Assembly (NCBI GenBank): GCA_023953695.1
Contig: JAMLJG010000003.1
Coordinates: forward strand, 7,012 to 71,011
DNA length: 64,000 nt
Direction: 5' to 3'
DNA from: Kiritimatiellia bacterium
Lineage (GTDB): Bacteria; Verrucomicrobiota; Kiritimatiellia; CAIVKH01
Shown piece after piece: positions 1-6,990 of this stretch. The translations under genes and the position numbers were made by a program. The notes under the pieces are model-generated. The model had not been told where the DNA came from. It saw only the letters and a list, made by a program, of their open reading frames with translations, and searched no databases. Numbering within the stretch: position 1 is the stretch's first letter; every line of letters starts with the position of its first letter.

Positions 1-1134
1 GTGACGGGGCCTTGGACTCGCGAGCTTCCTGGATCAAGCGGATGACCTTGCGCAGCGAGCTTTCGGCCGCGGGCTTAAGAACGCGGACATCCAGCTTGCC
101 CCAGAGGTTTAGCGTGCCGGAGAGCACTCGTTCTCCGGGCGCTTTGTCCACGGGAATGGATTCGCCGGTCAAATTGGATTCATCAGCGGCAGAGGATCCG
201 CGGAGGACGAGGGCATCCACGGGAAACATTTCGCCCGGTCGGACGGCGAGCATGTGCCCCGGGCGAAGTTCGTCCACCGCGATAAGCTCCTCCGAGCCGT
301 CCTCTTTCAAGAGCGTGGCCGTGGTTGGCGCTTCTTTGAAGAGGCTGCTGATGGCGTATTCCGTGCGATGTTGCGCCAGTTCTTCGAATGCGTCGCTGAT
401 GGAAAAGAGGAAGAGGAGCAGGGCGCCTTCCCAGAAGTGTCCGATCGTGGCAGCGCCCACTGCGACGAGAATCATGAGAAAGTGAATGTCGAGAGTTCGC
501 CTGCGCAAGAGGTGCCACGTTTCTTGAACGGGGAACCAGCCGCCGCAAATGAATGCTAACGTGTATAGGATCCGGATGGAGATGGGGAGGTGTTCGCCAA
601 GAGGGAGGGGGTCATGGGGAGCCGACATTAGTCTTTCTGCAATGAACCCTGCCAGTGTGAGAGCGCCGGATGAAATGGCGAGGGCGAGTGGGAGTTTCCA
701 GCCGTGATGGTGATGGTCTTCTCCTTCTCGGTGGGAATGTTCGGCAGGAATCTTTCTCATCACCTCGACACGCATCCAGGGGAACTGCTTCCAGTTCCAC
801 GAGCGCGCGCTTGTGGAGATGGGTTCGCGCTCGAGGAGAAGACCCGAGCCCGGAAGCGCGACAACGCGTATGCCGTCGGGAAGAGGTCTATTGGCGTTCT
901 TCACGCACTGTGCGCAGTTGGACTGCCATGGGGCCGTGGTGCAGGTGGGAATGTCTTCCGGCTTGAATTCGCCCGCGAGTTGCTCTAGCTCGCGTTGGGC
1001 CTCATCGGTCTCCACATTGGCGGCGCTTGCAAAGGCGATTCGACGGGCTTTCGCATCAATGAAAACCGCTTTGATCTTTTCGGTCGTCGCCAGAATTCTG
1101 GCAAAGCCATGGACAATGCACTTCGATTCACTCA
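1..1134 (-). CDS. Heavy-metal translocating P1B-type ATPase, N-terminal part. Gene continues beyond window start.
   Basis: Manual translation of the minus strand from ATG at 1134 gives MSESKCIVHGFARIL... followed by a His-rich stretch (EHSHREGEDHHHHGW), TM helices, and the actuator-domain motif LTGESIPVDKAPGERVLSGTLNLWGKLDVRVLKP...LIQEARESKAPS typical of CadA/ZntA/CopA-type pumps. Not in ORF track as one ORF because it is truncated by the window edge. Confidence 0.8.
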
Positions 1135-1248
1135 TTGCGGAATTGTAGCAGGGCCCACGGCTTTGCGCGTGAGATCATCTCTCCTGAGAACTGAATATTT
1201 TTAACAACTAAACTCAGAAACGGTTGACAAACTAGCCCGCAAGGCGCA

Positions 1249-1264
1249 TTTTGACCAGTCAAAA
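1249..1264. promoter_or_regulatory. Inverted repeat TTTTGAC-CA-GTCAAAA in the divergent promoter region between the P-type ATPase and the metal ABC transporter operon. Candidate metalloregulator operator.
   Basis: Perfect 7-bp arms with a 2-bp spacer seen directly. A TTGACA hexamer lies 20 bp upstream (1224-1229). Confidence 0.3.
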
Positions 1265-1279
1265 AGAAAGATTCGATTA

Positions 1280-2260
1280 GTGAAAATAGCAAGAATCGCG
1301 CTGGGTTTCACCTTGGCGTGTGTAGCGCTGGGGCCATTCGCCCACGCGCAAGAACCCGTGAACGAGCACATGCGGCCGTTTCGAGTCGTGGCGACCGTGG
1401 GCATGGTGGCCGATGTTGTTCGAGCCGTTGGCGGGGATCGCACAGAAGTCGCTCAGCTCATTGGCAGTGGAATTGATCCGCACCTCTATAAGCCGACGCG
1501 GGGCGATGTGGCGCAGATGTTGGGTGCCGAAATTATATTCTATTCAGGGTTGAAGCTGGAAGGAAAGATGGGCGATGCCTTTGCGCGATTGGCGAATAGC
1601 GGGCGCGAAGTGCATGCTTTGACGGAGAAGCTGGGAGAGGGCTATTCGCTGCACAGTCCGGCGAGTGCGCAACACACGGATCCGCACGTCTGGATGGATG
1701 TGCAGGGCTGGATGACGACGATTGGCGTGGTGGCTGAAGTCATGTCTCGCCTCGATCCGAAGCATGCGAGCGATTACGCGCAGCGCGCCGCGACCTATCG
1801 CGCCGAACTGGAAGCCTTGGATCACTACGTTCGCGAGGTCATTGCAACCATACCGGACGATCAGCGGATATTGGTGACGGCGCACGATGCGTTCCAATAC
1901 TTCAGCCGGGCGTATGGCATCGAGGTCTATGGCATACAGGGAATGTCGACGGAATCGGAGGCGGGCCTTGAGCATATCAATCGGTTGGTGGACCTGTTGG
2001 TTGCGCGGCATGTACCCGCAATTTTTGTCGAGAGCAGTGTTGCCGATCGAAACGTGCGCGCCTTGGTGGAGGGCGCGCGTGCCCGGGGTCACCGCGTGGC
2101 GGTTGGCGGAACATTGTTTTCCGATGCGATGGGCAAACCGGGCACCTATGAAGGGACTTATATCGGGATGATTGATCACAATGCGACGTTGATCACTCGC
2201 GCACTGGGCGGAACTGCGCCGCGCGGCGGGTTTCAGGGCAAGTTGGAGGGCATGCCATGA
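1280..2260 (+). CDS. Metal (Mn/Zn/Fe) ABC transporter substrate-binding protein, TroA/ZnuA/MntC cluster-9 family
   Basis: N-terminal signal peptide ([23 protein letters not shown]). Sequence features characteristic of the TroA/PsaA/ZnuA family (DPHVWMD..., His-containing metal site). First gene of an SBP-ATPase-permease-permease operon. Confidence 0.88.
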
Positions 2261-3069
2261 TGTTGCCGTGGAAGATGTCGGGACAGCCAGCGGGCCCGGA
2301 ACATTCGCCCTATGCGCCTGTTTCCATTCACGATGTGACCGTTGCCTATCATCGCAAACCGGTCTTGTGGGATGTGGACCTCGACCTGCCGGAAGGCAAG
2401 TTGGTCGGTGTGATTGGTCCCAACGGCGCAGGGAAAAGCACGCTGATCAAGGCGATCTTGGGCTTGGTGCCCACGGCTTCGGGCGAGGTGAAGTTCTATG
2501 GAGGAACGCTCCGCAAGCACCGCGCATTGGTGGGCTATGTGCCGCAACGCGAAAGCGTAGATTGGGATTTTCCCGTTAGTGCGCTGGATGTGGTGGCGAT
2601 GGGACTCTATCGGCGAATCGGCTGGTTTCGCCGCATTCGTCGCACTCACTATGAAGAGGCGACGAAGGCATTGGCGCGAGTTGGGATGGATAGCCTGGCG
2701 TTGCGCCAAATCAGCCAGTTGTCCGGCGGTCAGCAGCAGCGGGTCTTTCTTGCGCGCGCGCTCGCACAGGACGCACAGATTTATTTCATGGATGAACCGC
2801 TCGTGGGTGTGGATGCGGCGACGGAGCGGGTCATCATCGCGTTGCTTCGCGAACTGCGCAATGCGGGTCGAACAGTGGTGGTGGTGCACCACGACTTGCA
2901 ATCGGTCGCCGAGTATTTTGATCACGTCATTATGCTCAACACCCGCGTTGTGGCAGCAGGGCCGACCGCTGAGGTGTTCACGCAGGATAACTTGCTGAAG
3001 ACCTATGGCGGCCGCCTCACGCTGCTGGATGAGGCTGCGCATGCCGTGGCGAGGACAGGTCAGCGGTAG
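2257..3069 (+). CDS. Metal ABC transporter ATP-binding protein (ZnuC/MntB/TroB-like)
   Basis: Walker [10 protein letters not shown], signature [15 protein letters not shown], Walker B IYFMDEP. Start overlaps the SBP stop (ATGA). Confidence 0.92.
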
Positions 3070-3074
3070 CCGGT

Positions 3075-4511
3075 ATGACCGCGCAGCGACAGAGTCGGGG
3101 TAGCCCTTCGTTTGGCCTCCTGGTGGCGCTTGTCGGCGTGCTGGCGTTTATCGCGCTTACCGTGTGTGCTGAGAGCGCGACGCCCGCGCTGTGGCGGATT
3201 TTTTCGCTGCGCGATTACAACACGCGTGTGGTTATGGGTGGAACGGGGTTGCTCGGCGTCGCATGTGGCGTGATCGGGACCTTCATGGTGCTGCGCAAGA
3301 AGGCCCTGTTGGGAGATGCAATCAGCCATGCGACATTGCCGGGCATTGCGATTGCCTTTTGGGTCATGGTGGCGGCAGGCGGGACGGGAAAGTATCTGCC
3401 GGGGCTCCTCCTGGGCGCGGCGGTGTCGGGTGTGTTGGGAATGGGCGCCATTCTTCTTGTCCGCCATCACACGCGGTTGCCGGAAGATGCGATTCTGGGC
3501 ATTGTGCTGAGCATCTTCTTTGGAGCGGGTGTGGCCATTTTGGGCGTCATCCAAAAGATGAGCACGGCCTCCGCCGCCGGGTTGGAGACGTTTATTTACG
3601 GCAAGACCGCCTCCATGTTGGGCGAAGATGGACGCCGCATCGCGTGGGCCGCGGGTGTGCTCATTGCGATCAGCGTATTGTTGTTCAAAGAGTTTCGCGC
3701 GCTCTGCTTCGATGCAGGCTTTGCGCGCGCACAGGGATGGCCCATTCGTACGCTGGATGCGGTGATGATGGGCATGGTCGTGACGGCCACGGTGATTGGA
3801 CTGCAGGCGGTGGGCCTGATTCTCGTCATTGCTCTTCTAATCATTCCGCCATCTGCCGCACGATTTTGGACGGAAGATTTGGGGATCTTGGTCTGGCTTG
3901 CGGCTGGGTTGGGGGCGCTTTCGGGCGTTGTCGGCTCGGGTGTGAGCGCGGCATTTCCTGAGCTGCCTGCGGGTGGCGTGATTGTTCTTGTGGCCTCTTC
4001 CGTGTTTGTGGTGAGTCTTCTTTTCGGGCGCGCGCGGGGACTCGTATTTCGCGCTGTGACCCACCTGTGGCTTGAAGTGCGAATCACCCGCCAAAATGCA
4101 CTGCGTTCGTTGTTTGAGGTCTCGGAGCGCCACTCTGCTGGCGAGCCTGTGACGGAAAAAGCGCTGCGCGAAGTGCGCTATTGGCGCGGGATGCAGTTGC
4201 ATCGCGCGCTCCGCCGCTTGGAGCGCGAGGATCGGGTGTGTCGGGTCCTCGGCGGCTGGCGTCTCACGCCAGATGGTCATGAGGAAGCGCAACGCATGGT
4301 GCGCAATCATCGCCTCTGGGAACTCTATCTAATCCACCATGCAGCGGTTGCGCCCTCCCATGTGGATCGCGATGCTGACTTGATTGAGCACGTATTGGGT
4401 CATGAAATGGTTGTGGAGCTGGAGAAACTCCTCGACGCAACGGTTGCTGAGCCCGCGGTGCCAGAGAGTCCACACCCCATTGCAGCGCCAGTGGAAGAGG
4501 GGGGGACATGA
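3075..4511 (+). CDS. Metal ABC transporter permease (ABC-3/TroC family) fused to a C-terminal DtxR/MntR-like winged-helix + metal-binding domain
   Basis: Residues ~1-330 are a multi-TM ABC-3 permease. Residues ~334-478 contain ...GGWRLTPDGHEEAQRMVRNHRLWELYLIHHAAVAPSHVDRDADLIEHVLGHEMVVELEKLL, which aligns with the HTH-wing and dimerisation/metal-binding region of DtxR-family repressors (HRLAERLL...HDEAxRWEHV). Confidence 0.85.
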   Translation: MTAQRQSRGSPSFGLLVALVGVLAFIALTVCAESATPALWRIFSLRDYNTRVVMGGTGLLGVACGVIGTFMVLRKKALLGDAISHATLPGIAIAFWVMVAAGGTGKYLPGLLLGAAVSGVLGMGAILLVRHHTRLPEDAILGIVLSIFFGAGVAILGVIQKMSTASAAGLETFIYGKTASMLGEDGRRIAWAAGVLIAISVLLFKEFRALCFDAGFARAQGWPIRTLDAVMMGMVVTATVIGLQAVGLILVIALLIIPPSAARFWTEDLGILVWLAAGLGALSGVVGSGVSAAFPELPAGGVIVLVASSVFVVSLLFGRARGLVFRAVTHLWLEVRITRQNALRSLFEVSERHSAGEPVTEKALREVRYWRGMQLHRALRRLEREDRVCRVLGGWRLTPDGHEEAQRMVRNHRLWELYLIHHAAVAPSHVDRDADLIEHVLGHEMVVELEKLLDATVAEPAVPESPHPIAAPVEEGGT

Positions 4512-5776
4512 ATTGGACGCTTCTGGATACGTGGATGCTCGCCACGGGTATCTTTTCCGCGCTCTCCTGTGCGCTCTTGGGCAATTTTCTCTTCGTGCGC
4601 CGACTTTCCTTGATGGGGGATGCGATTAGCCACGCGGTTCTCCCAGGATTGGCGGCTGCCTTTCTGATCACGGGGAGTCGCGACAGCGGACCGATGTTGA
4701 TGGGAGCCGTCATTGCTGGTGTTCTGACCGCCGTGCTCACGCAAGGGATTGCCCATGCGGGAAAGGTGGAGGAGAGCACCTCAATGGGCATTGTATTCAC
4801 GACGCTCTTTGCCGTGGGTCTCCTACTGATTGTTCGCGCGGCAGACCGCGTTGATTTGGATCCCTCTTGCGTATTGTATGGATCACTTGAGCTGACGCCG
4901 CTGGACACGATCCGCATCGGGGGGATGACGCTGCCTCGCGCGTTCCTGGTCAATACCAGTGTGTTTGCTGTGAACGCGGCAATTGTGTGGCTGCTCTTCA
5001 AAGAGTTCATGATTGGTGCATTTGACCCGATGCTCGCTGTGACACAGGGGTTTCGTCCGCGCTGGATGCACCAGTTGTTGATGGCGCTTGTTGCGCTCAC
5101 GGCGGTTGCCTGTTTCGAGACGGTAGGCAGCATACTCGTGGTGGCCATGTTGATCGTTCCCGCTGCTACAGCTCGGCTGCTTTCGAGCCGATTGCCCGCG
5201 ATGTTGGGTCTGAGTCTCGCTATCGCTGCGGGCAGTGCGATTCTGGGCCACCTTGGGGCGTTGACAATTCCGCGCTTGTTTGGCTTCGAGGATACGACAA
5301 CGTCGGGAATGATGGCCGTTGCCGCGGGCGCAATGTTCTTTCTCGCGCTCATTTTTGCTCCGGGGTCGGGTGTTCTGGCGCATGCGCGCAATCAACTGTC
5401 TTTGCGCCGTCGCATTGAAAACGAGGACGCGCTCGCCGCTCTGTATCGGCGAGGGGAGGGGATGGAGTTGGCAACAGCGGAACTGCCGTCGCCTCGCTTG
5501 CTTCACCGCTTGGAGCGGCGCGGTTTCGCCGCAGAGTCGGCCGGTGTCTGGCAGTTGACCCCTCGTGGGAAAGAGGAGGCCGAGTCTGTGATCCATGCCC
5601 ATGTCTTGTGGGAACGCTTTCTTGTTGATCACGCCAATATGCGTGTGGATCACGCCCACCAATCATCGGAGAGGTTGGAACACGTGACGACGCCGGAGAT
5701 GCGGGAAGTTCTTGCGGAAACGGTGGAAAAGCCGGTCACGCCGCCATCAGACGGCTCGATTTTGCCGCCACGCTGA
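4508..5776 (+). CDS. Metal ABC transporter permease (ABC-3/TroD family) fused to a C-terminal DtxR/MntR-like domain
   Basis: Multi-TM ABC-3 permease, then C-terminal ...VWQLTPRGKEEAESVIHAHVLWERFLVDHANMRVDHAHQSSERLEHVTTPEMREVL resembling the DtxR winged helix + metal-binding region. Start overlaps upstream stop (ATGA). Confidence 0.85.
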   Translation: MNWTLLDTWMLATGIFSALSCALLGNFLFVRRLSLMGDAISHAVLPGLAAAFLITGSRDSGPMLMGAVIAGVLTAVLTQGIAHAGKVEESTSMGIVFTTLFAVGLLLIVRAADRVDLDPSCVLYGSLELTPLDTIRIGGMTLPRAFLVNTSVFAVNAAIVWLLFKEFMIGAFDPMLAVTQGFRPRWMHQLLMALVALTAVACFETVGSILVVAMLIVPAATARLLSSRLPAMLGLSLAIAAGSAILGHLGALTIPRLFGFEDTTTSGMMAVAAGAMFFLALIFAPGSGVLAHARNQLSLRRRIENEDALAALYRRGEGMELATAELPSPRLLHRLERRGFAAESAGVWQLTPRGKEEAESVIHAHVLWERFLVDHANMRVDHAHQSSERLEHVTTPEMREVLAETVEKPVTPPSDGSILPPR

Positions 5777-5861: not shown

Positions 5862-6071
5862 ATGCCGGTAAAACACATTCGCAATAAACATCTTCGTCGC
5901 AAGCGCAAGGGAGCTGCGGACAAGCGTCGTCGCGTGAAGGTCCAGAAGAAGCGCGTGGTCGCCCTCGGACTTCCGGCCGAGAAGGCTGAAAAGCTGAATC
6001 AGAAGGAAATTCGCACGCTGCTTCGCAACCCCAAGAAGACCGCAGCGCGCCTGACCAAGAAGTCCGCCTAA
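5862..6071 (+). CDS. Small, very basic hypothetical protein (69 aa, K/R-rich)
   Basis: ORF with AGGAAG Shine-Dalgarno 6 nt upstream. Composition MPVKHIRNKHLRRKRKGAADKRRRVKVQKKR... No family recognised. Confidence 0.5.
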   Translation: MPVKHIRNKHLRRKRKGAADKRRRVKVQKKRVVALGLPAEKAEKLNQKEIRTLLRNPKKTAARLTKKSA

Positions 6072-6087: not shown

Positions 6088-6990
6088 ATGGCGGTTCGCT
6101 TTCGATACCGCGTTGAGTATGCCTTACTGCGCGGCAGCGCAGCCCTGCTAAATGCGCTGCCTTATCCATTGGCCCTCGCCTTCGGCGCGGGCCTTGCTGC
6201 CCTGACCCCGCTCTTCGGTTCGCGCCGTGTCGTAGAAGCGCGCCGTCGTATCGCAGAGGTCTTTCCTGAAAAGTCGCAGCGCGAAGTGCGGCGCATTGCG
6301 CGCATCGCACTGCGAAATTTGGCCTTCAACCTGGTGGAAGCCCTGCGCTTTCCCCATATGACCCGCGAATGGATAGAGCGGCATGTTGATGTCGGCAATT
6401 TTGACGATGCCACCGTGGCGCACATCCAACCGGGGCAAGGCGCCCTATTTGTTGTGCCGCACATGGGCAACTGGGAGATGGCCGGGCTGGTTGCAGGGCA
6501 GCGTGGATTGCCCATATTCTTATTGGTTGGCCGCCAGCGGAATCCTCTGACGGACACTTTTATGAGGGAGATTCGCTCCGCCACTGGCGTCACTGTGGTG
6601 GTGCGCGATCAGCTGGCGGTGCGAAATGTGTTGCGGAATCTGCGAGTTGGTAAGGCGCTGGCTATTTTGCCCGATTTGCGCATGCCCACGACTGGCGTTC
6701 CGGTGAAATTTCTTGGGCGCGATGTCGAGTTTCCCGGCGGCACAGCCCTCTTTGCTCGGCATGCGCATGTTCCGGTTTTCATTGGACACGTCCGGCGGGT
6801 GGGGTGGACAAAACATGTGTGGGAATTTCTGCCGCCAATGTGGTCTGACCCCGCTTTGAGCAAAGAGGAAGACGCACAACGCATTTTGCAGACCGCGGCA
6901 GATCACTTCAGCGAAGCAATCCGTCGGCATCCCGAACAATATTTCTGGTTCAACAAGCGCTGGGTGCTCGAAGCGCGCAAGAAGAGCTAA
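6088..6990 (+). CDS. lpxL: Lipid A biosynthesis (Kdo2-lipid IVA) lauroyl/myristoyl acyltransferase, LpxL/HtrB family
   Basis: LPLAT-family motifs (VVPHMGNWE, PEQYFWFNKRW) typical of LpxL/LpxM. Confidence 0.85.
   Translation: MAVRFRYRVEYALLRGSAALLNALPYPLALAFGAGLAALTPLFGSRRVVEARRRIAEVFPEKSQREVRRIARIALRNLAFNLVEALRFPHMTREWIERHVDVGNFDDATVAHIQPGQGALFVVPHMGNWEMAGLVAGQRGLPIFLLVGRQRNPLTDTFMREIRSATGVTVVVRDQLAVRNVLRNLRVGKALAILPDLRMPTTGVPVKFLGRDVEFPGGTALFARHAHVPVFIGHVRRVGWTKHVWEFLPPMWSDPALSKEEDAQRILQTAADHFSEAIRRHPEQYFWFNKRWVLEARKKS

Follow-up and report, generated by a model that had tools for sequence, protein, structure and literature searches.

Both permeases of a TroA/PsaA-class metal importer end in DtxR/MntR-related domains that may sense metal in cis

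The subject of this analysis is an importer operon in a 64,000-nucleotide stretch of DNA from the metagenome-assembled genome of a Kiritimatiellia bacterium, in the Verrucomicrobiota (contig JAMLJG010000003.1, positions 7,012 to 71,011 of the forward strand; the whole stretch is called the window). The operon codes for a substrate-binding protein (SBP), an ATPase and two permeases of an ATP-binding cassette (ABC) metal transporter, and both permeases end in a DtxR/MntR-related, two-domain, SH3-less module. The locus is unusual in that both permeases carry such a tail, the helix-turn-helix (HTH) of the second tail is degenerate, and a canonical regulator and a conserved candidate operator are found alongside. 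A plausible but tentative reading is that each tail senses cytoplasmic metal and acts in cis on the transporter that bears it. The permeases and the parts of their tails are listed below (AF2, AlphaFold2; pLDDT, predicted local distance difference test).

3075..4511, forward strand: permease 1, 478 residues, with ABC-3 and PF02742 domains
3075..4025, forward strand: permease 1 membrane domain, residues 1-317, PsaC-like fold (ABC-3 Pfam match, AF2, Foldseek)
4026..4130, forward strand: permease 1 junction, a loop of 5 residues (G318-RAR-G322) followed by a 30-residue helix, 323-352, running into DtxR α1 (AF2, pLDDT about 94-97)
4155..4265, forward strand: tail 1 winged HTH, with α2 361-367, α3 374-384 and β-wing 388-397; fold complete, sequence poorly conserved (AF2, phmmer)
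4266..4445, forward strand: tail 1 dimerisation/metal-binding helices (PF02742), three helices with H412, E416, D431, D435, E438 and H439
4446..4508, forward strand: tail 1 Pro-rich C-terminus with invariant S465-P466-H467, aligning with the DtxR tether and the ScaR Cys123-Pro-His125 region
4508..5776, forward strand: permease 2, 422 residues, with ABC-3 and PF02742 domains
4508..5356, forward strand: permease 2 membrane domain, residues 1-283, PsaC-like fold (ABC-3 Pfam match, AF2, Foldseek)
5357..5455, forward strand: permease 2 junction, a short loop (APGSG) and then a long helix, 289-316, made up of linker and α1 (AF2, alignment)
5456..5557, forward strand: tail 2 degenerate HTH, with a 12-residue loop (317-328) in place of α2, a short α3 (329-337) and a β-wing (341-350) (AF2, alignment)
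5558..5773, forward strand: tail 2 dimerisation/metal-binding helices (PF02742) with H365, E369, H384, E388, E391 and H392, and a Pro-rich C-terminal end

The C-terminal extensions are 161 residues long in permease 1 and 139 in permease 2. The first-pass annotation, made from the sequence alone, had put both at about 130-145 residues, which holds for the second and is too short for the first. At a Pfam cut-off of 27 bits, PF02742 (Fe_dep_repr_C) matched residues 398-456 of permease 1 with 51 bits and residues 351-418 of permease 2 with 58.7 bits; ABC-3 matched residues 53-317 (E 1e-57) and 10-283 (E 5e-43), respectively. Of the three profiles proposed with the annotation as a check, ABC-3 and PF02742 were thus found on both permeases, whereas PF01325, the HTH domain, matched neither tail at E<=1. 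An SH3/FeoA domain was found on neither tail. When the tails were compared with PDB sequences using phmmer, tail 1 matched residues 4-123 of ScaR (E 1e-8), a span that takes in the complete winged HTH and the dimerisation domain, and also matched SloR and MtsR; tail 2 matched residues 42-123 of DtxR (E 9e-7).

Single-chain AF2 models were built from alignments of 118 (permease 1) and 120 (permease 2) homologues. The pLDDT was 89.4 for full-length permease 1 and 91.7 for permease 2, and exceeded 90 in the tails. In Foldseek searches with these models, the tails matched ScaR, DR2539, DtxR, IdeR, SloR and MntR over 115-124 columns. PF02742, the PDB matches and Foldseek agree in placing DtxR-family domains on both permeases, as had been proposed. 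The extensions had been described as a wing plus a helix bundle; the bundle was recovered, but tail 1 holds the whole winged HTH (ScaR 4-123).

The final transmembrane (TM) helix of permease 1 is modelled at 299-317. Helix 323-352, on the far side of the short loop, bears N341 at the position of DtxR Met10 together with R344 and E348, and α3 of the winged HTH is Arg-rich. The corresponding helix of permease 2 (289-316) bears an invariant D307 at the DtxR Met10/MntR Asp8 position. A deletion of about 15 residues has removed α2 from tail 2; since 19 of the 120 homologues share it, the loss appears to be long-lived in a clade that keeps the ligands intact. The C-terminal end of tail 2 reads PPSD here, against a family consensus of DPHG. 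At its other end, permease 1 has an N-terminal extension (residues 1-40, window 3075-3200; pLDDT 49-77) with an extra hydrophobic helix at 12-30 that has no counterpart in permease 2 or PsaC.

The metal-ligand positions were assigned by alignment to DtxR and Bacillus subtilis MntR. The DtxR segment 42-123 used as reference agrees with the PDB alignment. Each DtxR ligand position is occupied in both tails, and the earlier statement that the His/Glu ligands are conserved is upheld. The assignments are given as DtxR residue = tail residue.

Tail 1: M10=N341, H79=H412, E83=E416, H98=D431, C102=D435, E105=E438, H106=H439
Tail 2: M10=D307, H79=H365, E83=E369, H98=H384, C102=E388, E105=E391, H106=H392

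Among the 118 and 120 homologues (50-84 % identity) these positions are invariant or at least 90 % conserved, except N341 of tail 1, where relatives carry N or H, and E388 of tail 2, where they carry E or D. The annotation had likened an Asp at the Cys102 position of tail 1 to MntR. The Asp is present (D435), but in this alignment B. subtilis MntR has Glu, not Asp, at this position. An acidic residue there is consistent with non-thiol sites of the Mn/Fe type.

To compare the parts of the tails with one another, mean pairwise identity by region was taken over 15 genomes that code tail 1, tail 2 and a free-standing regulator of the family.

α2: tail 1 0.27, tail 2 0.10, free regulator 0.44
α3: tail 1 0.32, tail 2 0.25, free regulator 0.53
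Wing: tail 1 0.22, tail 2 0.23, free regulator 0.53
α4: tail 1 0.64, tail 2 0.52, free regulator 0.59
α5-α6: tail 1 0.63, tail 2 0.40, free regulator 0.64

In the same genomes the DtxR-type 'PGT(V/A)T(T/S)M' start of α3 is kept across phyla by the free regulators only and not by the tails. As judged from these alignments, the metal-binding residues of the tails are kept much better than their DNA-binding parts. A pattern in which the metal and dimer helices are kept while the HTH varies, and is truncated in tail 2, would fit a sensor released from the need to recognise an operator. It lends some indirect support to the earlier suggestion that the two tails may pair as one DtxR-like dimer on each transporter and work in cis. 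The two tails resemble each other only a little more than they resemble the free regulators; a single ancestral fusion preceding the permease duplication is weakly indicated. Ligand and dimerisation residues that are invariant in about 120 homologues each, drawn from several phyla, intact ORFs (open reading frames) and confidently modelled tails point to purifying selection rather than decay. They make it very improbable that the tails are functionless remains of an ancestral fused repressor, redundant beside the free regulator, as the degenerate HTH, the deletion in tail 2 and the existence of lineages in which one permease or the other has lost its tail might otherwise suggest.

The transporter itself belongs to a familiar class. 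An ORF check placed the SBP, the ATPase and both permeases as four ORFs on one strand at window positions 1280-5776, the first two being:

1280..2260, forward strand: periplasmic metal-binding protein (the SBP) of the ZnuA/TroA/PsaA family (PF01297, E 6e-75; NCBIfam AztC/MntC below their cut-offs)
2257..3069, forward strand: ABC ATPase subunit (PF00005; NCBIfam MntA/AztA-like)

The membrane domains of the AF2 models match PsaC (7KYP) at E about 1e-14 with Foldseek TM-scores of 0.8-0.88. With a PF01297 SBP, an ABC ATPase and ABC-3 permeases of PsaC-like fold, the operon is a TroABCD/YtgABCD-class (TroA/PsaA-class) metal ABC importer, and Pfam and Foldseek agree with the gene order and TroA-type assignment made at first reading. 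From motif positions, the putative ligands of the SBP are H68, H136, H202 and D282, a His/His/His/Asp set that resembles the ligands of TroA. PsaC, from the pneumococcal Mn importer, has nine TM helices and was produced and purified as a C-terminal green fluorescent protein fusion (PMC8346216); though that paper does not say so, these data are consistent with a cytoplasmic C-terminus. The stop codon of permease 1 and the start codon of permease 2 overlap as ATGA, and translational coupling through this overlap should give tail 1 and tail 2 in a ratio of 1:1.

The free-standing regulator lies just beyond the window. The first 12 kb of the window are 99.7-99.8 % identical to contigs L007-L010 (blastn; L009 and L010 end before 12 kb). 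Contig L008 stops 201 nt upstream of window base 1, and the other three extend further. In these three a 224-residue gene follows the P1B-ATPase gene with which the window begins, at a window-equivalent position of about -1891 to -1217, i.e. 1.2-1.9 kb upstream of base 1. Its product matches PF01325 (42 bits), PF02742 (108 bits) and FeoA/SH3 (50 bits), and its best NCBIfam match is Thermus-type MntR. By its domains it is a canonical three-domain DtxR/MntR regulator, a soluble, free-standing member of the family. The annotation had reported no such gene in or next to the operon and had named a separate regulator immediately outside the window as evidence against its reading. Within the 64-kb window no other DtxR-like ORF was found, nor a Fur-like one with the Fur query used, but L007, L009 and L010 do show the separate regulator. 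The left end of the window contains the following features.

1..1135, reverse strand: 5' part of a P1B-type heavy-metal P-type ATPase with a His-rich EHSHREGEDHHHHG stretch at its N-terminal end, start codon at 1135 (translation, blastn to L007-L010)
1136..1279: divergent intergenic region of 144 bp (gene tables, blastn)
1224..1229, forward strand: -35-like TTGACA (sequence)
1249..1264: candidate operator, the perfect palindrome TTTTGAC-CA-GTCAAAA, 16-31 nt upstream of the SBP start codon

The full-length P1B-ATPase has 779 residues in L007 (4289-6628; TIGR01525 570 bits, PF00122/PF00702), and its first 378 codons correspond to window 1135-1. The P1B-ATPase/regulator operon is divergent (head-to-head) from the importer operon, and import and efflux share the 144-bp control region. 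The arrangement of regulator and P1B-ATPase recurs in an 81 %-identical relative (L005) and in another Kiritimatiellia locus (L001). The free regulator of a planctomycete locus (L003) lies 4 kb upstream; at this locus (2163-5400) it adjoins a multicopper oxidase gene and two cupredoxin-like genes, with no P-type ATPase.

The presence of this regulator raises the possibility that the tails are its membrane-tethered partners. The tails would bind the soluble three-domain DtxR/MntR, sequester it at the membrane and so couple transporter abundance or state to transcription. Contact could be made through the shared dimerisation helices, or by the Pro-rich C-termini of the tails on the SH3-like FeoA domain of the regulator. 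The tether of DtxR binds its own SH3-like domain, and both tails end in a Pro-rich tether segment without the SH3 domain that the free regulator carries. The two partners also have the dimerisation domain in common, and a free DtxR-family gene lies within 10 kb in 19 of the 45 double-fusion loci (and in 9 of the 19 single-fusion loci) of the survey described below. Against this, tails and free regulator are just 0.29-0.32 identical in the dimerisation domain, the DPHG of tail 2 has decayed to PPSD in the window, and many loci have no regulator nearby. Such a partnership is improbable.

The control region was then considered. A weak -10-like CATTTT (1247-1252) lies 17 nt after TTGACA and overlaps the palindrome. 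A strict sigma-70 scan detected no promoter in the intergenic region, and this pair is no more than promoter-like. The palindrome occurs once in the window, where 0.48 matches are expected, so that it is not significant within the window alone; its significance comes from its conservation across loci. A perfect TTTGAY-NN-RTCAAA was present upstream of the SBP gene in 15 of 66 related loci and in 0 of about 1,400 shuffles, and at least 13 of the 14 positions were matched in 22/66 loci versus 0.35 % of shuffles. The loci with the palindrome belong to Verrucomicrobiota, Kiritimatiellia, Phycisphaerae and Spirochaetia and include single and double fusions alike. The palindrome is enriched near a three-domain free regulator (12/20 vs 10/46, odds ratio 5.4, p 0.004), and its perfect form is shared by loci whose tail-1 α3 sequences differ widely. 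Because the palindrome tracks the conserved recognition helix of the free regulator and not the variable α3 of the tails, we infer that the conserved candidate operator is read by the free regulator. The selected role of the tails would appear to be metal binding and dimerisation, not operator recognition.

In the mechanism proposed here, transcription of the importer would be controlled by the free regulator bound to TTTTGAC-NN-GTCAAAA over the -10/+1 region. The permease tails, each with a full DtxR/MntR ligand set and dimerisation helices, would be cytoplasmic metal sensors acting on the transporter. In DtxR, IdeR and MntR, metal bridges α1 to the dimerisation domain and repositions the N-terminal domain, which is the activation switch. 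In the models of the two permeases, the α1 ligand position (N341 in tail 1, D307 in tail 2) is predicted on a continuous helix of 28-30 residues, about 5 residues past the last TM helix. Movement of α1, together with a pairing of the two tails stabilised by metal, could be passed directly to the transmembrane domains, and high cytoplasmic metal would slow or lock import (trans-inhibition). The winged HTH would be retained as a scaffold, freed from reading a specific operator, with α2 of tail 2 lost in this lineage. The complete scheme takes the tails to have given up transcriptional control: a single tail1:tail2 dimer, formed in dependence on metal, would gate each importer mechanically via α1, and regulation of the shared divergent promoter would be left to a separate canonical DtxR/MntR. 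This scheme is possible and is put forward quite tentatively.

Several observations favour in-cis sensing. The tether between membrane domain and tail is short and confidently predicted to be helical by AF2. Three operons with a single permease gene (L049, L056, L086), each fused with a tail of the tail 2 type, imply a homodimeric transporter with two identical tails; the genes concerned lie at about 10.0-11.3 kb in L049 and L086. The single-permease fused state is possibly ancestral. Regulatory domains are also known from other importers, where MetN C2 (MetNI) and ModC (ModBC) effect trans-inhibition in cis. In the same transporter class a precedent is provided by E. coli ZnuBC, which is locked at high Zn by metal-dependent dimerisation of the ZnuC C-terminal zinc-sensing domain, whose motif is CxxxHxxCC (PMC12236471, preprint). 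The likeness lies in the fusion of one subunit to a cytoplasmic domain that binds the substrate being carried. In ZnuC, MetN and ModC, however, that domain is on the ATPase and its fold is unrelated to DtxR, whereas in the window it is the membrane subunits that carry the candidate sensor, for which gating is a proposed function. The ABC ATPase of the operon contains zero Cys, which makes a ZnuC-type CxxxHxxCC motif impossible on it.

The closest characterised relative points elsewhere. Chlamydia trachomatis YtgC-YtgR (YtgCR, CT069; ytgABCD operon) is an ABC-3 permease-DtxR fusion whose C-terminal domain is cleaved off as a product of 28-30 kDa; YtgR binds the ytgABCD and trpBA promoters iron-dependently and represses both, and permease-DtxR fusions have been reported in 11 phyla (PMC5599777, PMC6504234, PMC7755916). 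The architecture, which had been taken for uncharacterised, has therefore already been described in the case of the single fusion. In Chlamydia, a member of the Planctomycetes-Verrucomicrobia-Chlamydiae (PVC) superphylum, the metal-import operon has the gene order SBP-ATPase-permease-permease seen in the window, and the fused gene is that of its first permease (PMC5599777, PMC7755916). The window differs from Chlamydia in that the equivalent of YtgD, the second permease, carries a tail as well, and in that the HTH is not recognised by Pfam and is truncated in tail 2. From gene order only, tail 1 may be the orthologue of YtgR.

By this precedent, one or both tails would be cut from the permease and, as a metal-bound tail 1 homodimer or tail 1/tail 2 heterodimer, would act as a repressor at the importer promoter or at other genes. 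The fusion would then keep the amount of repressor in step with the making of the transporter. Release of this kind is the one mode of action in this family that experiments support, in an organism of the same superphylum with the same gene order, and 19 of the 80 surveyed loci show the exact Chlamydia pattern. Tail 1 has a complete winged HTH that aligns with ScaR/SloR from residue 4, and the promoter offers a candidate palindromic operator. That operator, however, tracks the free regulator; compared with co-resident free regulators, the tails show much lower conservation of HTH and wing and lack the recognition-helix signature; PF01325 is found in 0 of the 240 best homologues listed; and tail 2 has no α2. 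The loop of 5 residues that joins the tail helix to the last TM helix would leave little exposed linker for a protease, which further weakens this explanation. Cleavage in Chlamydia would fall inside the membrane domain, since the 28-30 kDa product exceeds the bare tail. On this evidence a released repressor is the main rival to in-cis sensing in the window, and somewhat less likely.

In-cis sensing has to be weighed against the following points. What the sole experiments on such a fusion, those on YtgCR, demonstrate is not gating but cleavage and DNA binding that depends on metal (PMC5599777, PMC6504234, PMC7755916). Tail 1 keeps a complete, confidently modelled winged HTH with an Arg-rich α3. 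An intramolecular tail-tail dimer is not universal, because 19/80 loci and Chlamydia have one tail. The low conservation of the HTH could have arisen through co-evolution with lineage-specific operators. Finally, 10 loci have a perfect or near-perfect palindrome and no free regulator within 10 kb; the regulator of these loci may be located elsewhere in the genome.

The distribution of the fusion, for which a survey had been suggested at first reading, was followed at two levels. The best 120 homologues of each permease were listed with their precomputed Pfam domains. The PF00950 plus PF02742 architecture was present in 240/240 of these best homologues; PF01325 was present in none of them and in every neighbouring free regulator. 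Verrucomicrobia, Kiritimatiellia, Planctomycetes, Phycisphaerae and Sumerlaeia are named among their sources. Separately, 80 loci, one genome per species, were scanned and classified with hidden Markov models built for this analysis. This sample is skewed to the best matches of permease 2 and its counts are not natural frequencies: double fusions were complete in 45/80 loci, with 3 more cut by contig ends, and only the first permease was fused, as in Chlamydia, in 19/80, with 2 more cut by contig ends. The latter state is common in Puniceicoccaceae, Akkermansiaceae and Limisphaerales. The reverse, fusion of the second permease only, was found in 4 genuine loci (L016, L030, L075, L083), which argues that tails have been lost or gained independently on either subunit. 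The three operons with one fused permease gene (L049, L056, L086) form a further class of this sample. Permease-DtxR fusions are common in Planctomycetota, Verrucomicrobiota and neighbouring phyla.

A phmmer search of 1.84 billion representatives with tail 1 alone gave 348 clusters at E<=1e-10. Some of the top 150 representatives are short proteins, which were considered as free-standing tails and rejected; their matches lie at the C-terminal end with leftover upstream residues, which marks them as truncated gene calls. Separate tail 1 ORFs in L027, L080 and L048 were considered as natural fissions and rejected as artefacts, which go back to a frameshift, to a stop codon in frame within the permease domain and to the end of a contig. 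A soluble tail draws no support from them.

The tails share with the free DtxR-family regulators (DtxR, IdeR, MntR, ScaR/SloR/MtsR, DR2539, TroR) the fold of domains 1 and 2 as matched by Foldseek, the PF02742 domain, the ligands H79/E83/E105/H106 and an acidic residue or His at 98 and 102. They differ in being covalently attached to an integral membrane protein, their helix beginning only about 5 residues past the last TM helix, in lacking the SH3/FeoA domain, and in having a variable recognition helix without the family signature. Treponema pallidum TroABCD-TroR and Streptococcus pneumoniae PsaBCA-PsaR represent the same transporter class, PsaC being the fold match of the permeases here, but their regulator is a separate protein and their permeases are tail-less.

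Chlamydia is the only setting in which these abundant fusions have been studied, and the tail is there regarded as the iron repressor of the cell. Only the Chlamydia papers on the fusion were found in a literature search that did not cover the survey by Thompson et al. 2012 (PNAS), which reportedly dealt with fusions in 11 phyla. If the tails act on the transporter, they would represent a new coupling of cytoplasmic metal status to uptake, and the role of uncleaved YtgCR in Chlamydia would deserve a second look. If instead they are released repressors, two fused DtxR-like domains beside one free paralogue would offer a natural system for heterodimerisation and division of labour.

Three further features of the surroundings were recorded. 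Directly 3' of permease 2, at window 5862-6071 on the forward strand, is an extremely basic ORF of 69 residues (MPVKHIRNKHLRRKRKGAADKRRRVKVQKKR...); a gene is called at the same position in L001, L005 and L007-L010, and no Pfam or NCBIfam match was found for it. Two Lip_A_acyltrans genes of 300 residues each, in the same orientation, bracket the metal locus (L007 800-1702 and 11581-12483, the latter being window 6088-6990), and between them lie an OmpA-like gene, the regulator, the P-type ATPase and the ABC operon. Recent duplication or an island boundary was considered for this pair and rejected, as the two are only 28 % identical and are thus old paralogues. The sign of the GC skew flips near 16-18 kb, 32 kb and 44-46 kb of the window, and these flips probably follow blocks of gene orientation.

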